In this document: positions 291 through 58,026 of the stretch, one piece after another
Layout of the letters: each line of letters begins with the position of its first letter
Numbering within the stretch: the stretch's first letter is position 1
IMG/VR virus record: IMGVR_UViG_3300028584_000286
Coordinates: 5,320 to 69,319 of that record
Length of the DNA stretch: 64,000 nucleotides
Strand: one strand, 5' to 3'
DNA from: a virus
Made by a program: the position numbers and the translations under genes
The notes under the pieces: model-generated
Databases searched by the model: none
What the model was told of the DNA's origin: nothing
Seen by the model: only the letters and a program-made list of their open reading frames with translations

Positions 291-864
291 ATATTCAAGT
301 GCTTATAATTCCTGTGGTATATGGGAACTCTGGCACGATAAAACTTGGGATGAGTACACTGATAAGAAGTATAGTAAGATTATAAAGGGTTTTGTAGATG
401 ATGAGGTTGAACATAATGTCATTCTTTATGGAAACAATGGAACAGGAAAGTCAATGCTTATGAACCTAGCAATGAAAGATTTAATGCACAAAGGTTACTC
501 TGTTTATTCTATTGATTTTAGGCACTTGATTAAGGAGTATTTGAAAAGTTGGAGGGATACTGGGAAAATAGGAACTATTGTTGGTGCCGAATATCTTGCT
601 ATTGATGATTTAGGGAAAGAGTTTAACTCTGGAGAGGTAAGCAAAGAACTTGCCATTACAACCCTTGATTATGTTTTACGATATAGATTTCAAAGAAAGT
701 TATCAACTTGGCTAACATTCAATATGCCATTAGGCGATGTTAAAGTTGAGTATAATGAGCATATTGCTTCATTGCTTAAAAGAAGTAGTGTTGCTGTTTG
801 TTTTGAGGGAGAAGATTTCGGGGAAAAACTCTTTAAAGTTATAAATCCAAATGACAAAGGATAA
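277..864 (+). CDS. DnaC/IstB-like AAA+ helicase loader
   Basis: Walker A GNNGTGKS, Walker B LAIDDLG, YRF..KLSTWLTFN typical of the IstB/DnaC family; upstream of DnaB. Confidence 0.85.
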   Translation: MTNSKYSSAYNSCGIWELWHDKTWDEYTDKKYSKIIKGFVDDEVEHNVILYGNNGTGKSMLMNLAMKDLMHKGYSVYSIDFRHLIKEYLKSWRDTGKIGTIVGAEYLAIDDLGKEFNSGEVSKELAITTLDYVLRYRFQRKLSTWLTFNMPLGDVKVEYNEHIASLLKRSSVAVCFEGEDFGEKLFKVINPNDKG

Positions 865-4790: not shown

Positions 4791-5339
4791 ATGCCAGTAA
4801 GAGAAGAAAAGTTAATTGAACGTGATGGATTAGGTGGTAAAAAGTTTGCCCTAACACAGGAGCAATGGAATGAATTGGATAATAGAGTTTTCAAAACTGT
4901 TGAACGTAATAAAGAAGTTGTTACTTTTGTAGAAGAGTTATCAGAGGAATTATCCAAAACATTTAACCAAATTGTTAAGGTAGGATGTAGAGCATTCCGA
5001 AGTATTCACGAACACTCGGATGGTAGTGATAAAGTTTCTAGCAGAAGTTACCTATCTATGGAGGTTGTATCAGTGGATGATACTGGAAAAACAGAAAACT
5101 ATTATTTAGACACTCACCCCGATTTAGGTGAGTTAAGAGAAACCATTATACAAGATTTATATGTTAGAAGAGCAAGAAAACAAAAAGAGGGAGGAGATGG
5201 AGAAAGCAGTAGTGATACTGTTGAAGGGGATGGGGGAGAACCCAGAAAGAGCAGACTTGAAAAATACACCGAAAAGATTTGTGAAAGCGTTGATGTCATT
5301 CAGTCCGCAAAAAGAAGAACCAGAGGTAACAGTATTTGA
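4791..5339 (+). CDS. hypothetical protein (MPxR start); 3' end overprints folE
   Basis: 182 aa; last ~47 codons overlap folE in another frame. Confidence 0.65.
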   Translation: MPVREEKLIERDGLGGKKFALTQEQWNELDNRVFKTVERNKEVVTFVEELSEELSKTFNQIVKVGCRAFRSIHEHSDGSDKVSSRSYLSMEVVSVDDTGKTENYYLDTHPDLGELRETIIQDLYVRRARKQKEGGDGESSSDTVEGDGGEPRKSRLEKYTEKICESVDVIQSAKRRTRGNSI

Positions 5340-5715
5340 AAGTAATTCCAACGGAGTAGTTGTGGTAAAAAATCTTGAAGTACGCAGTTTATGTGGACAC
5401 CATTTATTCCCCTTTATTGGAACTTGTTCTGTTGCCTATATTCCAAATAAGTTTAAGGCAGGACTATCTAAATTTCAAAGGGTTTTAGATTTTGTCGCAG
5501 AGAAACCACAAGACCAAGAGAACTTAACAAAAGAGATGCTAGATTTTTTGGTAGCAAAAATACAACCAATTGCTATGGTAGTAGAGATTACTTGTCAGCA
5601 TACTTGTATGAGTGGTAGAGGAGTTAAGTGCCACGATGCAGAAACATTTACAAGTGAGGAATACAACACCGACCCTACTGGACTTGACCTTCAGAAAATT
5701 TATCGAAAATTATAA
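5197..5715 (+). CDS. folE: GTP cyclohydrolase I
   Basis: TPKR, SLCGHH, GLSK, QDQE, HTCMSGRGV motifs; start set at ATG 5197 (track gives 5161). Confidence 0.92.
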   Translation: MEKAVVILLKGMGENPERADLKNTPKRFVKALMSFSPQKEEPEVTVFESNSNGVVVVKNLEVRSLCGHHLFPFIGTCSVAYIPNKFKAGLSKFQRVLDFVAEKPQDQENLTKEMLDFLVAKIQPIAMVVEITCQHTCMSGRGVKCHDAETFTSEEYNTDPTGLDLQKIYRKL

Positions 5716-16915: not shown

Positions 16916-17512
16916 ATGCCAATTAGACCACTTGACGGAGAATATTTAGAAAAGTCCACAAATTTAGCAGGACAACTGGAGGAAGCATTTAATAACATAG
17001 GTACTTCTATGATGTCCCCTATTGAGATAAGAAATTTGAACAATAAAACATTAAGAGTAACACACGGATATTCAAGAAGTTCAGACCCAGTTAAAAAATC
17101 TCTATACAGAAGATGGTGTTCTATGAAAACACGCTGTACTAATTCTAACACAAATTGTTCAAAATATTACAAGGATAAGAATATTTCATTATGTGATGAG
17201 TGGTTTCATAGTTTTGAGTTATTTATGACTTGGTCATTAGAAAATGGTTATGCCAGTTCATTGCAAATAGATAGAAAAGATTGTTCTCTCGGTTACACAC
17301 CAGAAAATTGTAGATGGGTAACTCCTACAAAAAACTGTAATAACAAAACTAACAATAGAATACACATTTATAAAGGATTTTCTGGTACATTAAGAGAATT
17401 TTCAGTAAAATATAATATTCCATATAGTTTATTACGAAGTAGAATTTATGAGGGCTGGACTATTGATAAAGCCTTAAATACTAAAAAATTAAAAGTTATA
17501 AAAAATGCCTAA
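16916..17512 (+). mobile_element. HNH-type homing endonuclease carrying a copy of the N-terminus of the next gene
   Basis: THG, LY..W.SMK.RC.N, CDEW..F..F..W, IDR.D...GY.PENCRW; first 29 aa are 23/29 identical to the ORF at 17505. Confidence 0.88.
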
Positions 17513-17999
17513 AAGACCTTTAGATACACCGTATAGAGAAAATTCTACTAACCTTGCAGGTCAGTTAGAAGAAGCCTTAAATAATATAGGATTGTCCGCT
17601 ATGACCTATGATTTCGCAGGGAAGCTACTTGCATTTTTATTGAAGTATGGTGGAGGTATGGAAGCAACAACCCATCATAAGGGGTTAAATGCAGGTATTA
17701 TGATTGCACAGGAAAAATGCAATATTAAAGGTGGGTGCATACCGACTATGGAAGGATTACAAGCAATTCAAAAATACAATAATGAGTTGAACAAAGAAAC
17801 CCAAGATTTAGAATGTGAATGGCTTTGGGAAATTTTTCTTCGTTATGATTTGCCTACTGGAAATTTAAAAAGTAAATGCCCAGAGGAGTTAAAAGCAAAG
17901 TATGGAGAGCCTAAAAAATCTAGTGGATCTAAACCGATTAAAAAGGGAGGTGGATTAAGCCAGTTCATTGATAGTGTAAATTCAGCAACAGGGAAATAA
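17505..17999 (+). CDS. hypothetical protein (MPxR start)
   Basis: 164 aa. Confidence 0.75.
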   Translation: MPKRPLDTPYRENSTNLAGQLEEALNNIGLSAMTYDFAGKLLAFLLKYGGGMEATTHHKGLNAGIMIAQEKCNIKGGCIPTMEGLQAIQKYNNELNKETQDLECEWLWEIFLRYDLPTGNLKSKCPEELKAKYGEPKKSSGSKPIKKGGGLSQFIDSVNSATGK

Positions 18000-19485: not shown

Positions 19486-19787
19486 GCGAAGAAGCCAAAG
19501 ACCATAATAGAGAAGATGTAATCTTTGTTAGTGGAAAAACGGAAACCAAAGGGTTATCTACTTGTATTTTTGCATCCTCTACAAAAGATGGCAAAAAAGA
19601 AATCAAGATGAGAGGTATCGGACACGGTGCTATTGGGCAAATGAGTAAAGCATTCATTATTGCAAAAGGGAAGTTATCTGAAAAAGGTATCAATGCTACT
19701 GTTGATATGTATTTTAAAGATATTGCCTCCAAAAGAGATGGTGAGGACAACATTACAGCTATTGAGTATTTAATTAAATTTGAATAA
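19482..19787 (+). CDS. SpoVS/Alba-like nucleic-acid-binding protein
   Basis: MRGIGHGAIGQMSKAFIIAKG resembles the SpoVS IRAIGAGAVNQAVKAIAIARG motif. Confidence 0.7.
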   Translation: MSEEAKDHNREDVIFVSGKTETKGLSTCIFASSTKDGKKEIKMRGIGHGAIGQMSKAFIIAKGKLSEKGINATVDMYFKDIASKRDGEDNITAIEYLIKFE

Positions 19788-19791
19788 AATT

Positions 19792-20547
19792 ATGCGTAAA
19801 TCATTAGTATTATTCTCTGGTGGTTTGGATAGTTTTTTATCATTATTGATAGCAATTAAAGATGGGGGAACTGTAACCCCCATTTTTTATAACTATGGAC
19901 AAAACCCCTACAAAGAGGAAAAAGAAGCGGTTTGGAAAATCTGCAAAAAATTAGGTCTTGCACCTATTGAAATAAACTTGACTGGGATAGGTCATCTTTT
20001 GAGTTCCTCATACACTACTGGAGAGAACGCATCAACGGATGAAAGCTACAATTCTTATGTACCAAATAGAAATTTATTATTCCTAACTTTAGCATCTAAT
20101 TTAGCACACATACAAAATTACAAATATATCTATACTGGGTTTTATTTCAAGAGTGGAAAGTCAGATGAGGCTATACGAGGTAATAAACTTGCTACATTGG
20201 TAGAAAATCAGTTAGAAAAAATTGATAAGGATAGGTACAATTATATACCACACCCAGACCAATCTAAAGAGTTTATAGAATTGGTTGGTAAAGTTCTTAA
20301 AATATCAGACACAGAAAATAGTCCAGAGATTATAAACCCTTTGGAGAATTTGGATAAGGTTGATATTTATGCAGAACTCGAAAAAATGGGGCAGATGGCA
20401 ATGGCTATTGTGGATACTTATTCGTGTTATGCAAAAGATAGCACAAAGCATATTTGGGGAAAAGGTTGTGGAGTTTGTACAAGTTGTGCAGGAAGGAAGA
20501 AAGCATTTGAGGTATTACGGAAAAATTATGGAAAGATTACAGATTGA
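19792..20547 (+). CDS. queC: 7-cyano-7-deazaguanine synthase
   Basis: SGGLDS PP-loop, YVPNRN, TYSCY...CGVCTSC Zn site. Confidence 0.92.
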   Translation: MRKSLVLFSGGLDSFLSLLIAIKDGGTVTPIFYNYGQNPYKEEKEAVWKICKKLGLAPIEINLTGIGHLLSSSYTTGENASTDESYNSYVPNRNLLFLTLASNLAHIQNYKYIYTGFYFKSGKSDEAIRGNKLATLVENQLEKIDKDRYNYIPHPDQSKEFIELVGKVLKISDTENSPEIINPLENLDKVDIYAELEKMGQMAMAIVDTYSCYAKDSTKHIWGKGCGVCTSCAGRKKAFEVLRKNYGKITD

Positions 20548-21348: not shown

Positions 21349-22884
21349 ATGCCGTATCAAAAACCACCCATTACAAAGCTGAATGATAGATTTATTGGGT
21401 ATTGTGCTGTAACACCTAACAGAAAATTTATGAAATTATTCGAGAGAGCAGATGTTAAGAACATTCTAATCTCTTTTCACTACATCAGAAAGGATAAGGA
21501 GTTTACGCAGGATATTCTACAAATGGTTCAAGAGAGAGGTGGACTATTTATGACTGATAGTGGTGCGTTCTCGTTTTTAAATGATAAAAGTTTTGACCTA
21601 AAAAACTTTGACTGGATTAGATATTTGGAGGAATATGTTGGGTGGATTGACGACAACACCAAGCACGTTTTTTCTGCCTGTAATTTGGATGTTGATTATT
21701 ATGTTGGACACGATGAGGTTGTGAAATGGAATAAAAAGTTTTTTGAACCTTTAGGAGATAGAACAAATATTATTTATGTTGCACATCAGAACGCCAAAGG
21801 AATGGGCGACTTGGATGCCTTGAAGGAGTATTGTAAGGAGTATGATTATGTTGCTGTAAATGAGCAAATGACAAAGTATGCTTCGGCTATCTATCAAGAG
21901 GCTAAAATAACTAAAACTGCAATTCACGGATTGGCGTGGACGAAACCAACAATACTTACTGATTTCCCATTTTTCTCTGTTGATAGTTCCTCTTGGGTAA
22001 ACTACCAAAAATATGGGGCTACACCTGTTTGGGATGGCAAAAACTTTTCTCAATATGATAAGGACAACAAAGACATTAGAAAAACTTTGCGAAAACAATG
22101 TTCTAATTATGGAGTTAAGGAATATGAATTTGTTCACGAAAAAAATGAAGCAGATGGTACACACAATGACGATGAGGGATTGACATTCTCACTTCGGACT
22201 TGGTTGGATGTATTTCATAGTATTAAAAGATTTGCAAAAACAAAATTAACCATAGACATAAAAAAGATGTTAGAGGGAAAGGAAACACAATTCGTAGAAG
22301 ATGCCTCTGGTGATCCAGACACACCTAGAAAAAGTAGGTTGGCTAGTATAATTGATGATAATGATGATATTATCTTTACTCCGGTAGCAAAGACTACATT
22401 CGCAGTAGGGGATGATGGAACAGAAGTTGCTATTTATGAGAAGAGGGATAGCAAGATTGCCATAAATGAATTTACTGCAAAGGTTGGTGATGCTATGGTA
22501 TGCACTTATTGTCATATTCAAGATAAATGCCCAAAGTATAAAGAGGATAGCACTTGTGCCTTTGACTTTGCCCCTGCAAGTTTTACGGAAAGTCCTTTGG
22601 TTGTTATTGACTTACTAATAAAAACGCAAACCGAGAGAGTGAACCGAGCAATGTTTTTTGAAAAAATGGAGGGTGGAATGCCTAACAAGGTGTTTACACA
22701 GGAATTGAAAGCATTAGAGGGATTGAATAACACTAAAACGAATATGCTACTTATGATGCAGTCGAGAGGGTTGAGAATTACACAGACTACTGTTGAGGTT
22801 GGTTTCGATGGTGGAGCAGAAAAACCCCAAGAGAAAAAACCTGGTTTTGCCGATATGCTTACATCCCTAATGGGAAAGAAATAA
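21349..22884 (+). CDS. dpdA: DpdA-like (TGT-fold) 7-deazaguanine DNA transglycosylase with C-terminal Cys4/helical domain
   Basis: DSGAFS, NLDV, IHGL, SVDSSSW motifs of phage TGT-like enzymes; folE/queC/queD/queE in the same genome. Confidence 0.8.
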   Translation: MPYQKPPITKLNDRFIGYCAVTPNRKFMKLFERADVKNILISFHYIRKDKEFTQDILQMVQERGGLFMTDSGAFSFLNDKSFDLKNFDWIRYLEEYVGWIDDNTKHVFSACNLDVDYYVGHDEVVKWNKKFFEPLGDRTNIIYVAHQNAKGMGDLDALKEYCKEYDYVAVNEQMTKYASAIYQEAKITKTAIHGLAWTKPTILTDFPFFSVDSSSWVNYQKYGATPVWDGKNFSQYDKDNKDIRKTLRKQCSNYGVKEYEFVHEKNEADGTHNDDEGLTFSLRTWLDVFHSIKRFAKTKLTIDIKKMLEGKETQFVEDASGDPDTPRKSRLASIIDDNDDIIFTPVAKTTFAVGDDGTEVAIYEKRDSKIAINEFTAKVGDAMVCTYCHIQDKCPKYKEDSTCAFDFAPASFTESPLVVIDLLIKTQTERVNRAMFFEKMEGGMPNKVFTQELKALEGLNNTKTNMLLMMQSRGLRITQTTVEVGFDGGAEKPQEKKPGFADMLTSLMGKK

Positions 22885-23573: not shown

Positions 23574-23930
23574 ATGCACATAATCAGTAAGGAGTTTCAT
23601 TTCTCCGCTTCACACGTTTTAAATGGTCTTTGCTCTGGGCATCCTTGCGGAAGAGTACACGGACATAACTACATCTTAAAAGTATTTTTGAAAGGAGAGC
23701 CTAATGAGGTTGGATTTGTTCAAGACTACAATGATTTATCACCCATAAAAAAATATGTAGATGATACTTTAGACCACAGGCACTTGAATGATATTTTTGA
23801 GTTTAATCCTTCGGTGGAAAATATTAGCCAACATATTTATCATTTGTTCAAACCTAAATTTCCAAAACTTCACGCTGTTGTTATGCAAGAAACACCTAAA
23901 ACAAGTTGTTACTATGAACCAACCTACTAA
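23574..23930 (+). CDS. queD: 6-carboxytetrahydropterin synthase
   Basis: FSASH, CGRVHGHNY, LDHRHLN, NPSVENI, ETPKT. Confidence 0.95.
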   Translation: MHIISKEFHFSASHVLNGLCSGHPCGRVHGHNYILKVFLKGEPNEVGFVQDYNDLSPIKKYVDDTLDHRHLNDIFEFNPSVENISQHIYHLFKPKFPKLHAVVMQETPKTSCYYEPTY

Positions 23931-48372: not shown

Positions 48373-49098
48373 ATGAAACTTAACTCTCTCTATACTACAT
48401 TTCAAGGTGAGGCTAATCCTTTAGGCATCGGGCATCCTGCAATCTTTTTAAGATTACAAGGGTGCCATTTGCGTTGTTATAAAAAAACAATGGGAATACT
48501 TTGTGATACTCCAGAGGGTTTAGAGAAACCCAATGAGGAGGATGAAGTTATGGAAATAGTGAATAAGACAGTTACACTATCTAAAAAAACCGGTGTAAAA
48601 TTAGTTACACTAACTGGTGGCGACCCACTTTGGAATTATGATAGTGATGTTTGGGTTTTACTATATGAACTTTCTTTGACAGGACTAACTATTTGTGTGG
48701 AAACAAGCGGAACAATTAGTTGGTTGCCATACAACAATATTAGTGATAAAATTCATTGGATACTTGACTACAAACTTATATCGGCAGGTATTAAAAATGC
48801 GGATAAATTATTTTTAGATATAGAACATTTAAACAGCTTATGTTCAAAAGATTATATTAAATTTGTTGTAGCGGATGAGGTTGATATGAATGAGTGTATT
48901 GAGGCAATTAAAAATCTAGCGGATAAAACACTTGCTACTATTTGTGTTGGTAGTTTCTGGGGTGGAAAATTAACTACATTCGATATTTTTGAAAGGTTGA
49001 AAAAAGAAAATTTGTTGGCGAGAACAACAATAAATGCACAGTTACATAAACTTGTAATATCCCCAAACACTAATATTGAAATTCCAAAAGATATATAA
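48373..49098 (+). CDS. queE: 7-carboxy-7-deazaguanine synthase (radical SAM)
   Basis: FQGE...G.PAIFLRLQGC.LRC....CDT, LTGGDP, VETSG, IKFVV, QLHK. Confidence 0.9.
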   Translation: MKLNSLYTTFQGEANPLGIGHPAIFLRLQGCHLRCYKKTMGILCDTPEGLEKPNEEDEVMEIVNKTVTLSKKTGVKLVTLTGGDPLWNYDSDVWVLLYELSLTGLTICVETSGTISWLPYNNISDKIHWILDYKLISAGIKNADKLFLDIEHLNSLCSKDYIKFVVADEVDMNECIEAIKNLADKTLATICVGSFWGGKLTTFDIFERLKKENLLARTTINAQLHKLVISPNTNIEIPKDI

Positions 49099-54506: not shown

Positions 54507-55253
54507 ATGAGCAGAATAATAGAGGTAGGTGCCGATACCAAAAAAGCACACGGAATATTTATTGGTTGGTTAAATACACTTATCAATAATTACATTAGTT
54601 CATTTTATGATGATGCTATTAAAAATATAATTATGCTTTCTTTCATAAGGGAGCATAATTGTTTTATGCTTGAACTATATAAAAATTTTGGCACAGAGGA
54701 TGCAGGATTTTTAACGATGCTACCTACTGATAGTACGAATGGTATTTTAATGGTACACGATGCTATTACTGGTGATCCATATTTGTATAATGACGAAAAC
54801 ATAAATGATATTTTAGAGTTCAATGCAAATGGTATTCTGGTTCGCTTTTTTGAAAATATCGTAATTCCAATGAAAGACAAAGATGGAATATCTGGTGCAG
54901 AGTGTTTTATAACTTTTGAAGATTTTTACGGAGTTAAAGCACCGATGTTTAATGTTCGATATGTTGGGAGCAATCAACCAATAGGGAAGGGCTATTTAGA
55001 TGTTCCTTTTTCTGGACGATACTCTGGAGCATATATGGTTAATAATAAACCTTTGGAAAACTTTGAAAAATATTCTATTAAAAACACATCCAAAGTTAGC
55101 ATTACGTTAGATATTCCAATTCTTAAAAATTTATCTGTACAATATGTTATCAATGCAGGTAGTTCTGTTATTGTTCCTATAACAGAGTTTTCAACCTCTT
55201 TCATAAAAAATGCAAAAGAACTTGGGAATATAGTAGTAATTAAAATACAGTAG
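54507..55253 (+). CDS. hypothetical protein
   Basis: 248 aa immediately upstream of TerL. Confidence 0.75.
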   Translation: MSRIIEVGADTKKAHGIFIGWLNTLINNYISSFYDDAIKNIIMLSFIREHNCFMLELYKNFGTEDAGFLTMLPTDSTNGILMVHDAITGDPYLYNDENINDILEFNANGILVRFFENIVIPMKDKDGISGAECFITFEDFYGVKAPMFNVRYVGSNQPIGKGYLDVPFSGRYSGAYMVNNKPLENFEKYSIKNTSKVSITLDIPILKNLSVQYVINAGSSVIVPITEFSTSFIKNAKELGNIVVIKIQ

Positions 55254-55257
55254 TAGT

Positions 55258-58026
55258 ATGGCAGAGGCGTATGAGAAGGATGCAAGTTTCTCTTTTGTTG
55301 GAACTCCAGAGGAAATAGATGTCGAGCAAGAAATAGCGGATACAACAAATGGTATGTCTTATGACCCATTTAGGTTGGCAGAGGTTTTAGTAAAAATCGG
55401 GCAACAAATGATGGGAGTACAGTTATACACCTACCAAGAGAAACCTGCATTTAGAATAATCTATTCTATATTAGCGAGAGATGGTGCGGAGATTACTATG
55501 CTTTATAGTAGGCAAAGTGGTAAATCGGAAACAAGTACATTTTGTATAGTTACTTTAGGAGTTCTACTACCAGTACTTGCGAAGATATTTCCACAAGAAT
55601 TGGGTCATTTTAAGAATGGTGTAAAAATGGGATTACTTGCACCACAAGGAGAGCAGGTGCAGACTATTTACGCACGATGTATGGAAAGATTACTCTCTGA
55701 ACCTGTTAGAATGTTTTTGGACGACCCAGACATTTTAGATAGTCCTATGTCCACAGTAAACTTTAGACTTAAATCAGGTTCTACTTTAACTGGACAATCA
55801 GCCGCTAAACAATCTAAAATTGAGAGTAAAACCTATCATATAATATTTTTAGATGAGGCACAAGATATTGATACTGAAAAGGTAAGAAAGTGTGTTGCTT
55901 GGGATAGCGAGGTCGTATTAGAAGATGGTACTAAATGTACTATGGAAGAAGCATTTTTAAATGAGAGTGTTCTGTATGGACACGAGGGAAGGATAACCCC
56001 TAAAGAATATATTGACAATGGTGTGCAAGAAGTTATTAAAATTGAACTAACAAATCAGTTTAGTATTGAGGCAACAGCAATTCATAAACACAAAGTAATT
56101 CGCAGAGGTAAAAATGATAATAAACCAATCTTTTTAACCACAGAGGAACTTACTATTTCTGATAGGTTATGCGTTGCAGATAAAATAGAGGCTTTCGGAA
56201 CTATTGGTACTTATGAAGAGGGGTTGCTTACTGGTTATGTGCTTGGCGATGGGCATAGCAAAAACTCTAAAACTCTTTTTTGTGGGTTTCTACCAACAAT
56301 ACGAAGAATTACAGACCTTGTAAAACGGTTTGAGTGTAGCGTAGTTGTACGAAGCAAACAAGAAAAATCCTCATTATATGAGGTTGCAATAGTTGGAGCC
56401 TCTAAAAAAGAAAGTGGGTACAGAACAAACTCTAAAGGAAGTAATGGCTTTATAGAGTATTTAAAGAGTATAGATTGCTATGGATTTACTGGGGAGGAAA
56501 AACACATACCAAAAAAAGCATTTAGTAGAGAATATTATGTTGGTCTTGTAGAGGGATTAATTGAAACTGATGGAAGCGTTTTTGTTTCATCAAATAAGGG
56601 GCATATTAATTTTTCTGGAATATCCGAAGAGTTAGTAAAAGGACTGCAATTTGTTTGCCAAAAATTTGGTGTTCACGGAAATATTTTGCAGAGGGATAAC
56701 TCAAAGGAATTTTCAGAAAACTCAAAGCCTATATGGTCTTTTACTATAAAAGATACAAGGTCTATTTTAGCTTTTTCAGAAAAATTTTCGCTCTATGAAA
56801 AACAAGAAAAATTAGAAGAGGTTGTAAAAATAACAAAAACAAAATCAGATAGAAATACTTGTTTATTATACCCAAGTTCAGAAAGATACTATAAAATAAG
56901 ATCTATTCAAAGTGTAGGCAAAAAACAGACTTATTGTATTGCTTCTGATAGAGATGACCATTTATGGACTGTTAATGGTATAGTTACTCATAACTCGATA
57001 ATACCAATGACAGCTTCTACATTTGGAACTATTGTTCGTACTGGAACACCTAGCAGACAGAAAGGAGATTTTTACTATACTATAAAAAACAATGAAAAGG
57101 TTGATGCTAAATTAAAGTCGCCAAAAGAGAGAGAGAAAAAGCAGTTGCATTTTCAATATGATTACCTGCAAGTAATAGCATCAAAAAAAGAGATGTTCAA
57201 GAGAGATAAACAAGACTTCCACTTGCTTTATGAAAAGTCTGTTTCTAGGGATAAAAAAAGTTGGGGTGAAAACTCCGACATCTTTAGATTAGCTTATAAG
57301 GTAGAATGGATACTTGAAGTGGGTATGTTTATTACTGAAAAAGGGTTAGAAGAGCAATGTTATGACAAACGACTTATATTACCAACTATTGATATTAAAA
57401 CTGATTTTGTTGTAGGGGGATTGGATATTGCTTCGGCAAGAAATAGTACAGTATTAACTACTGGTATTATAGATGCACCAGCAGGTGAGTTTGGAGAAAG
57501 ACCAAAGAAAACAATTTCAGATTGGTTAGTATTGTCTGGAATAAACTATGAGGAGCAGTTTCAAGTTTTAGCAGAAGATTTAATTCAAAAGAGAGTTCAG
57601 GTATTATTCGCAGACTACACAGGAGTAGGCAGGGCATTGACAGATGTTCTTATCTATCACTTATCAGAGTATATGGAAATTATTCCTTATACTTTTACCC
57701 CATCATCCAAATCGGATATGTGGAAGGCATTAGATGAGGATATAATGAATAGGAGGTTAGTTGTTCCTGCACATAAAACAGTCCAAAACAAAAAAGAGTT
57801 TAAGGATTTTGTAGAACAAATGACTAACTTGCAAAAATACTGGAGAGGTAGTTTTATGGTTTGTGAAAAAACATCGGGGTATGAAGATGATTACTGTGAT
57901 AGTTTGGCTTTGTTTAATTTAGCAGGAAACCATTTATACACCCCACCATCAATAGTTGAGGTTACTGAAAATACTATGATTGGAACAGCACACCGAAATT
58001 CAATGGTGCAAAGAAGCCGTTGGTAA
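55258..58026 (+). CDS. terL: terminase large subunit with intein
   Basis: SRQSGKS Walker A, FLDEAQD Walker B, GGLDIA and DDYCDS RNase H-like nuclease motifs. Confidence 0.92.
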   Translation: MAEAYEKDASFSFVGTPEEIDVEQEIADTTNGMSYDPFRLAEVLVKIGQQMMGVQLYTYQEKPAFRIIYSILARDGAEITMLYSRQSGKSETSTFCIVTLGVLLPVLAKIFPQELGHFKNGVKMGLLAPQGEQVQTIYARCMERLLSEPVRMFLDDPDILDSPMSTVNFRLKSGSTLTGQSAAKQSKIESKTYHIIFLDEAQDIDTEKVRKCVAWDSEVVLEDGTKCTMEEAFLNESVLYGHEGRITPKEYIDNGVQEVIKIELTNQFSIEATAIHKHKVIRRGKNDNKPIFLTTEELTISDRLCVADKIEAFGTIGTYEEGLLTGYVLGDGHSKNSKTLFCGFLPTIRRITDLVKRFECSVVVRSKQEKSSLYEVAIVGASKKESGYRTNSKGSNGFIEYLKSIDCYGFTGEEKHIPKKAFSREYYVGLVEGLIETDGSVFVSSNKGHINFSGISEELVKGLQFVCQKFGVHGNILQRDNSKEFSENSKPIWSFTIKDTRSILAFSEKFSLYEKQEKLEEVVKITKTKSDRNTCLLYPSSERYYKIRSIQSVGKKQTYCIASDRDDHLWTVNGIVTHNSIIPMTASTFGTIVRTGTPSRQKGDFYYTIKNNEKVDAKLKSPKEREKKQLHFQYDYLQVIASKKEMFKRDKQDFHLLYEKSVSRDKKSWGENSDIFRLAYKVEWILEVGMFITEKGLEEQCYDKRLILPTIDIKTDFVVGGLDIASARNSTVLTTGIIDAPAGEFGERPKKTISDWLVLSGINYEEQFQVLAEDLIQKRVQVLFADYTGVGRALTDVLIYHLSEYMEIIPYTFTPSSKSDMWKALDEDIMNRRLVVPAHKTVQNKKEFKDFVEQMTNLQKYWRGSFMVCEKTSGYEDDYCDSLALFNLAGNHLYTPPSIVEVTENTMIGTAHRNSMVQRSRW
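55891..56994 (+). mobile_element. intein with LAGLIDADG homing endonuclease
   Basis: Starts at C212 (CVAWDS), ends VTHN579 followed by Ser; GYVLGDG and GLIETDG motifs; 368 aa. Confidence 0.93.

Follow-up and report, generated by a model that had tools for sequence, protein, structure and literature searches.

Here we describe a gene for a 511-amino-acid (aa) fusion protein in a 64,000-nucleotide stretch of viral DNA (positions 5,320 to 69,319 of IMG/VR record IMGVR_UViG_3300028584_000286; hereafter the window), in which a DpdA barrel of the tRNA-guanine transglycosylase (TGT) fold is followed by a linker and an extra C-terminal domain with a four-cysteine (Cys4) module and helices. We propose that the protein is probably bifunctional, combining DpdA with the small terminase subunit (TerS) of the phage. 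A preliminary description, made from the sequence alone, had suggested a TerS-like module among other possibilities, and this suggestion gained support from homologs encoded directly before the large terminase subunit (TerL), from the retention of the domain after loss of catalysis, and from the fact that no other TerS was found.

The reading frame is intact, and about 50 near-full-length homologs of about 460–540 aa are 42–92% identical to its product, indicating that the fusion is real and ruling out an assembly chimera or frameshift artefact as its source. The AlphaFold2 model is confident for residues 1 to ~320, with the final barrel helix stopping at ~299, has a predicted local distance difference test (pLDDT) score below 50 across most of residues 327–372 in the linker, and shows helices at 416–440 and 447–472 (both with pLDDT 88–96) and at 500–508. 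Together, these data bear out the earlier description of barrel, Cys4 module and helical C-terminal domain within one protein. In Foldseek searches of the PDB, all 50 top matches are TGTs (best E = 2e-5), and matches in BFVD include named phage queuine tRNA-ribosyltransferases (E = 2e-8).

Several details of the earlier description had to be revised. The four cysteines stand, but their spacing is C-x2-C-x5-C-x8-C in 141 of 141 diverse homologs, with five residues and not four between the second and the third. The linker is present, but it is only mildly acidic (14 D/E versus 8 K/R in residues 310–372), and the tail described as flexible ends in a conserved amphipathic helix, the motif of which occurs in 109 of the 141 homologs. 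Residues Q427, R430, E438, G442, G443 and E452 are nearly invariant in the same set. Residues 474–484 have an alternating hydrophobic pattern that is visible in the sequence only, the corresponding strand being absent from the monomer model. Neither the whole protein nor the extra domain has a match in Pfam; a PDB sequence search with the family profile gave no match either, and VIA-align against 48,161 chains yielded only generic hairpins; Atlas searches gave no usable lead, a match to T5 TerS at 0.77 being within chance. The zinc site of tRNA TGTs is C-x-C-x2-C plus a His, inside the enzyme domain. The Cys4 module was considered as this zinc subdomain and rejected, because its spacing is different and it is frequently encoded by a gene of its own.

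A search with the corresponding domain of Streptomyces phage BRock gave weak matches to Gordonia and Rhodococcus phage proteins annotated as ‘terminase small subunit’. Profile–profile comparison with this pre-TerL family gives a probability of 95.9% and E = 5e-9, with identical cysteine spacing, and the hairpin alone, with the cysteines removed, scores 22.9, versus at most 14.4 in 30 column shuffles. The family comprises 116 Gordonia, Tsukamurella and Rhodococcus records, and the gene directly precedes terL in all 10 genomes opened, often with overlapping stop and start codons. A stand-alone homolog beside a terminase, of the kind that the preliminary description had proposed to look for, is gp28 of Rhodococcus phage Trogglehumper, a 199-aa protein that consists of the domain alone, overlaps the start of terL, and has the size and place usual for a TerS; its link to the domain profile is transitive, via GTE7. 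The ‘TerS’ label in Gordonia phages was assigned by position (PMC4524720), and the TerLs of the Gordonia and Rhodococcus phages belong to a different clade with no BLAST similarity to the TerL of the window, so that the label serves as a lead and the position as the evidence.

The long Gordonia proteins are probably the same fusion with a decayed DpdA barrel. Specifically, global alignment of a pooled profile set pairs the ~290 N-terminal residues of these proteins with the DpdA barrel from one end to the other, at a probability of 47% and a score of 27.8 (block shuffles, 3.8 ± 2.8, maximum 12.0), and the catalytic motifs are absent. In addition, the full model and the ‘TerS’ of Gordonia phage Jumbo align in Foldseek across 581 columns with E = 1e-4, compared with 0.044 for the domain alone. 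HMMER alone detects no barrel in the Gordonia proteins; because the barrel is found only by global profile alignment and Foldseek, its homology is probable, not certain. In Rhodococcus phage ReqiDocB7 (L022 152–1548), a frameshift seems to have divided a single GTE7 gp1-family gene into gp001 and gp002, and the annotated start of gp002 removes three of the four cysteines.

The domain is also retained where the enzyme is dead. D212, the nucleophile position, and often D70 as well, are lost in most of the diverse fused homologs, including that of BRock, which has Ser at the nucleophile position. Genes for 7-deazaguanine synthesis (que genes) are found near 17 of 17 loci with intact residues and near none of 77 loci lacking D70 and/or D212; none was found within the ~104 kb of BRock examined. 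The barrel tree places the catalytic loss in one or two events only, so the 77 and 17 loci are not independent counts. Nevertheless, the dead clade spans 30 clusters with less than 50% identity, all of which keep the barrel scaffold and the cysteines, which argues for long selection for a non-catalytic role. Furthermore, the gene is one of ten detectably common to the window phage, Bacillus phage BCD7 and BRock, the other nine encoding polymerase, helicase, RecA, resolvase, a SpoVS-like protein, TerL, portal, capsid and baseplate.

Searches for another TerS found none. The preliminary description had seen no clear TerS next to TerL, and indeed the preceding gene encodes a 248-aa protein without family match. 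It had also named a clear TerS elsewhere in the genome, if the domain had no known fold link as well, as an outcome that would count against the proposal; a PF03592 search of the genome gave nothing, and a search with the TerS family phrog_6902 matched only the domain of the dpdA fusion. Likewise, the BRock and BCD7 regions examined carry no TerS annotation. The 248-aa protein might itself be the TerS by position. It has no family or Atlas match and is 50% identical to a protein of a close relative (L028), the only phage beyond the window phage in which it was found, no homolog being detected in the TerL regions of BS162P1, BCD7 and BRock. A 240-aa protein of Fusobacterium phage Fnu1 (gp13; L021 4382–5104), encoded before a distantly related TerL, appears on inspection to be helical and to resemble a TerS, but it lacks the cysteine module and gives no score with the domain profile.

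The enzyme half is predicted to be active in the window phage. It has D70, D114 and D212, which by motif order match Asp95 (acid/base), Asp130 (base-binding) and Asp256 (nucleophile) in the DpdA active site (PMC10164549). Four homologs (L005 5893–8091, P0072, P0117 and P0233) carry an intein immediately behind the D212 motif, an insertion point expected of an active site. The phage encodes all four 7-deazaguanine genes, FolE, QueD, QueE and QueC, which PMC6884629 gives as the minimal set yielding dPreQ0 in phages Rosebush and CAjan. Given the intact aspartates and these genes, an active DpdA inserting preQ0 is expected, and gene content predicts dPreQ0 in virion DNA. In these respects the protein resembles Enterobacteria phage 9g DpdA (preQ0 group, PMC6884629), with a TGT barrel, the catalytic Asp set and FolE, QueD, QueE and QueC encoded by the genome. 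The similarity to 9g DpdA (24.7% identity over residues 26–235) is confined to the barrel, however, and the fusion adds a ~150-aa Cys4-hairpin-tail domain behind a ~70-aa linker. Methyltransferase-like and 2-oxoglutarate-Fe(II) oxygenase-like genes near the dpdA and que genes of relatives (L008 7661–10001, L007 11512–12102) hint at further guanine hypermodifications there.

The fusion itself is already catalogued in databases, where the function of the domain goes unexplained. The profile phrog_887 (509 positions, ‘queuine tRNA-ribosyltransferase’) covers residues 18–466, and the entries for BCD7 gp21 and BRock gp36 in the supplement of Hutinet 2019 (PMC6884629) give both as DpdA without comment on the domain. 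Both have the same fused architecture and belong to the same TerL clade; BCD7 gp21 has a much longer linker (757 aa in total). Term searches of phage-DpdA papers, including PMC6884629, found no mention of the extra domain, and within an incomplete coverage of the literature no publication was found that joins DpdA with a terminase or describes the domain.

The domain is widespread. Its profile collects 1004 clusters at 50% identity, and among the best 141 new clusters 41 are DpdA-fused, 88 are short or stand-alone, and 12 have other N-termini. Most of the short or stand-alone forms measure ~250 aa and have another cysteine-rich segment ahead of the domain; a search aimed at shorter homologs had returned one fragment, and the stand-alone forms turned up in other searches. 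An archaeal-virus protein of 128 aa (A0A1S5Y302) is among the matches. Within the BCD7/BRock-like lineage, where the gene sits among recombination and replication genes, 111 loci were compiled: 90 fused, 16 with dpdA adjacent or at most four genes away, and 5 cut at a contig edge, with no complete locus lacking dpdA. In the barrel tree, split forms are interspersed with fused ones at more than one position, so that the fusion looks ancestral. One locus (L016 10001–11068; P0201) carries the domain behind an HNH module and not DpdA, with intact dpdA and que genes just upstream; another (L131 7252–8420) has a split pair of a separate, catalytically dead DpdA and a 139-aa stand-alone domain.

Characterised TerS proteins have an N-terminal DNA-binding domain, two antiparallel ring-packing helices, and a C-terminal strand and region that contact TerL; P22 TerS has no helix-turn-helix and a predicted terminal helix (10.1101/851345). 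The extra domain is similar to the TerS of P74-26, T4/44RR gp16, SF6 G1P and P22 gp3 in its order of antiparallel helix pair, strand-like segment and terminal helix. By family knowledge, once the phage DNA has been replicated the N-terminal barrel would replace its guanines by preQ0, with preQ0 supplied via FolE, QueD, QueE and QueC. The C-terminal domain would form the TerS core, its hairpin potentially packing into a ring, and the strand after the hairpin and the terminal amphipathic helix potentially recruiting TerL. The Cys4 module, a probable zinc site, and the tethered barrel could provide DNA binding in place of a helix-turn-helix, and may recognise the packaging site; a DNA-targeting zinc module, which the preliminary description had listed as an alternative, is thus compatible with a TerS. 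Packaging would be the essential role, which could account for the survival of the domain, together with a dead barrel, in lineages without modification. That base exchange is coupled to packaging, as the preliminary description suggested, is a hypothesis weakened as a general rule by the existence of split forms and of a catalytically dead clade. More tentatively, we can picture a DpdA–TerS ring in a widespread myovirus lineage, with several base-exchange domains modifying or proofreading guanines on DNA bound for packaging; in actinophages the barrel would have lost catalysis, been kept as a DNA-recognition domain, and then decayed or been dropped, giving the long Gordonia ‘TerS’. We regard this fuller scenario as possible, and as appreciably less likely than the bifunctional assignment itself.

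Several observations limit the TerS reading. The gene lies 32 kb from terL and not directly upstream of it, and none of the 111 lineage loci has a lineage-type TerL near the domain gene within the locus DNA examined. The two antiparallel helices expected of a TerS are present, but such a hairpin is a generic motif, as the VIA-align results show. A Cys4 module and a TGT barrel, and not a helix-turn-helix, precede it, for which reason we describe the domain as working like a TerS and assign it to none of the characterised TerS families. In addition, it has no sequence match or specific structural match to any characterised TerS, matching only the positionally annotated phrog_6902 and phrog_16015. 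The main weaknesses are the distance from terL, the generic hairpin and the lack of any experimentally characterised member of the domain family; no functional test of the Gordonia ‘TerS’ was found. Complex prediction for the domain, zinc and the intein-free TerL P0259, a near-cognate that is 91% identical over the C-terminal 340 aa, gave scores of 0.17 and 0.27 against a mark of 0.32 and counts neither way.

Retention after the loss of catalysis shows a second role, not which one, and the less likely but serious competitor is an essential role other than TerS, most plausibly as a DNA-binding regulator of late or structural genes or as an adaptor from replication to packaging. A zinc-binding activator would likewise head a structural operon, and in Gordonia phages the structural operon begins with this gene, which is divergent from primase; the recombination and replication neighbourhood in the lineage described here also suits such a role. 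A regulator, however, would leave both lineages without a recognisable TerS, and it has no regulator family match in Pfam or PHROGs on its side, whereas the Gordonia gene overlaps or abuts terL and the order of hairpin, strand and tail helix fits a TerS. We consider it unlikely that the domain serves DpdA alone as an accessory, oligomerising the enzyme or targeting it to phage DNA to raise modification density, with the Gordonia position incidental. The association with dpdA in the lineage loci, fused in 90 and close by in 16, would be natural for an accessory, as would the persistence of split forms beside dpdA although they arose more than once. It is harder to reconcile with the invariance of the domain across 30 diverse dead-barrel clusters, with Trogglehumper, where the domain stands alone before terL, and with phage 9g DpdA, which modifies DNA in E. 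coli (PMC6884629) and matches the fusion protein no further than residue 235. That the domain catalyses a further reaction on the inserted base, the second chemical step also raised by the preliminary description, is very improbable: several invariant polar residues (Q427, R430, E438, E452) would suit a catalyst, but no enzyme fold or family matches the domain, its zinc knuckle and hairpin make too small and simple a structure for an enzyme, and it is retained even where a base to act on is missing.

The window lies within an 84,459-bp virus record with a CheckV completeness of 98%; the virus is a myovirus with sheath and baseplate genes. The nearest relatives of its TerL are those of Bacteroides phage BS162P1, BRock and its relatives, and BCD7. 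Gene starts are AT-rich and free of Shine-Dalgarno sequences, which, together with the kinship to BS162P1, suggests a Bacteroidota host. The TerL intein spans about residues 212–579, and near-identical relatives such as P0259 lack it. Twelve of 117 plus-strand open reading frames (ORFs) start with M-P-x-R, compared with ~0.14 expected from composition (window positions 4791, 5815, 16916, 17505, 18262, 18892, 26545, 37752, 38226 and 46268, plus two outside the window), possibly reflecting a signal for translation start or a protein tag at the N-terminus. The neighbouring ORFs 16916–17512 and 17505–17999 have a duplicated ~30-aa N-terminus in common, and the former resembles a homing endonuclease that has invaded the latter. 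Coordinates of the fusion gene, its parts and related genes are collected in Table 1.

Table 1. Features of the dpdA fusion gene and of related genes, in window coordinates.
Feature	Coordinates	Strand	Basis or remark
dpdA–C-terminal domain fusion gene (511 aa), member of phrog_887, homologous to BCD7 gp21 and BRock gp36	21349..22884	+	
DpdA/TGT barrel, residues 1–300, with D70, D114, H146, H193 and D212	21349..22248	+	
Variable, low-confidence linker, residues ~301–372	22249..22464	+	
Cys4 module C385/C388/C394/C403, probable zinc site	22501..22557	+	Alignments; zinc binding predicted
Two antiparallel helices, 416–440 and 447–472, putative oligomerisation hairpin	22594..22764	+	
Alternating hydrophobic segment 474–484, candidate inter-subunit beta-strand	22768..22800	+	Sequence pattern
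Conserved C-terminal amphipathic helix 499–511, candidate TerL-binding tail	22843..22881	+	Analogy with P22 TerS
QueC	19780..20547	+	Pfam PF06508, E = 1e-38
QueD	23574..23930	+	Pfam PF01242, E = 3e-29
FolE (GTP cyclohydrolase I)	5161..5715	+	phmmer to BCD7 gp22, E = 6e-30
QueE	48373..49098	+	phmmer to BCD7 gp27, E = 4e-16
TerL with LAGLIDADG intein, 554-aa extein, proposed partner	55258..58026	+	32 kb downstream of the dpdA fusion
248-aa gene directly before TerL, no family match, positional rival for TerS	54507..55253	+	

New with respect to the literature searched are the probable identity of the DpdA-fused domain as a small terminase; its homology to pre-TerL proteins, seen in GTE7 gp1, Woes gp6, Jumbo gp6 and Mbo2 gp1 (phrog_6902, phrog_16015) and in Trogglehumper gp28, which have the same cysteine spacing and hairpin and differ from the fusion described here in lying directly before terL, in belonging to another TerL clade and in having a barrel without catalytic motifs or none; the persistence of barrel and domain in a large clade, BRock included, without the catalytic Asp and que genes; and the series from active fusion through dead fusion and decayed fusion before terL to the domain alone before terL. 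If the TerS assignment is true, BCD7/BRock-like myoviruses would have the small terminase that has been missing from them, about 1000 clusters would make up a zinc-containing TerS family, and decay of a DpdA fusion would explain the oddly long (455–540 aa) ‘TerS’ of more than 100 Gordonia phage records. The link between hypermodification and packaging would be testable in cultured phages, with BCD7 representing the active form, BRock the dead form, Trogglehumper the domain only, and BS162P1 the split form. Furthermore, the enzyme may be dead in ‘DpdA-only’ phages such as BRock, which have been regarded as possibly modified, in which case the presence of DpdA does not always indicate modification.
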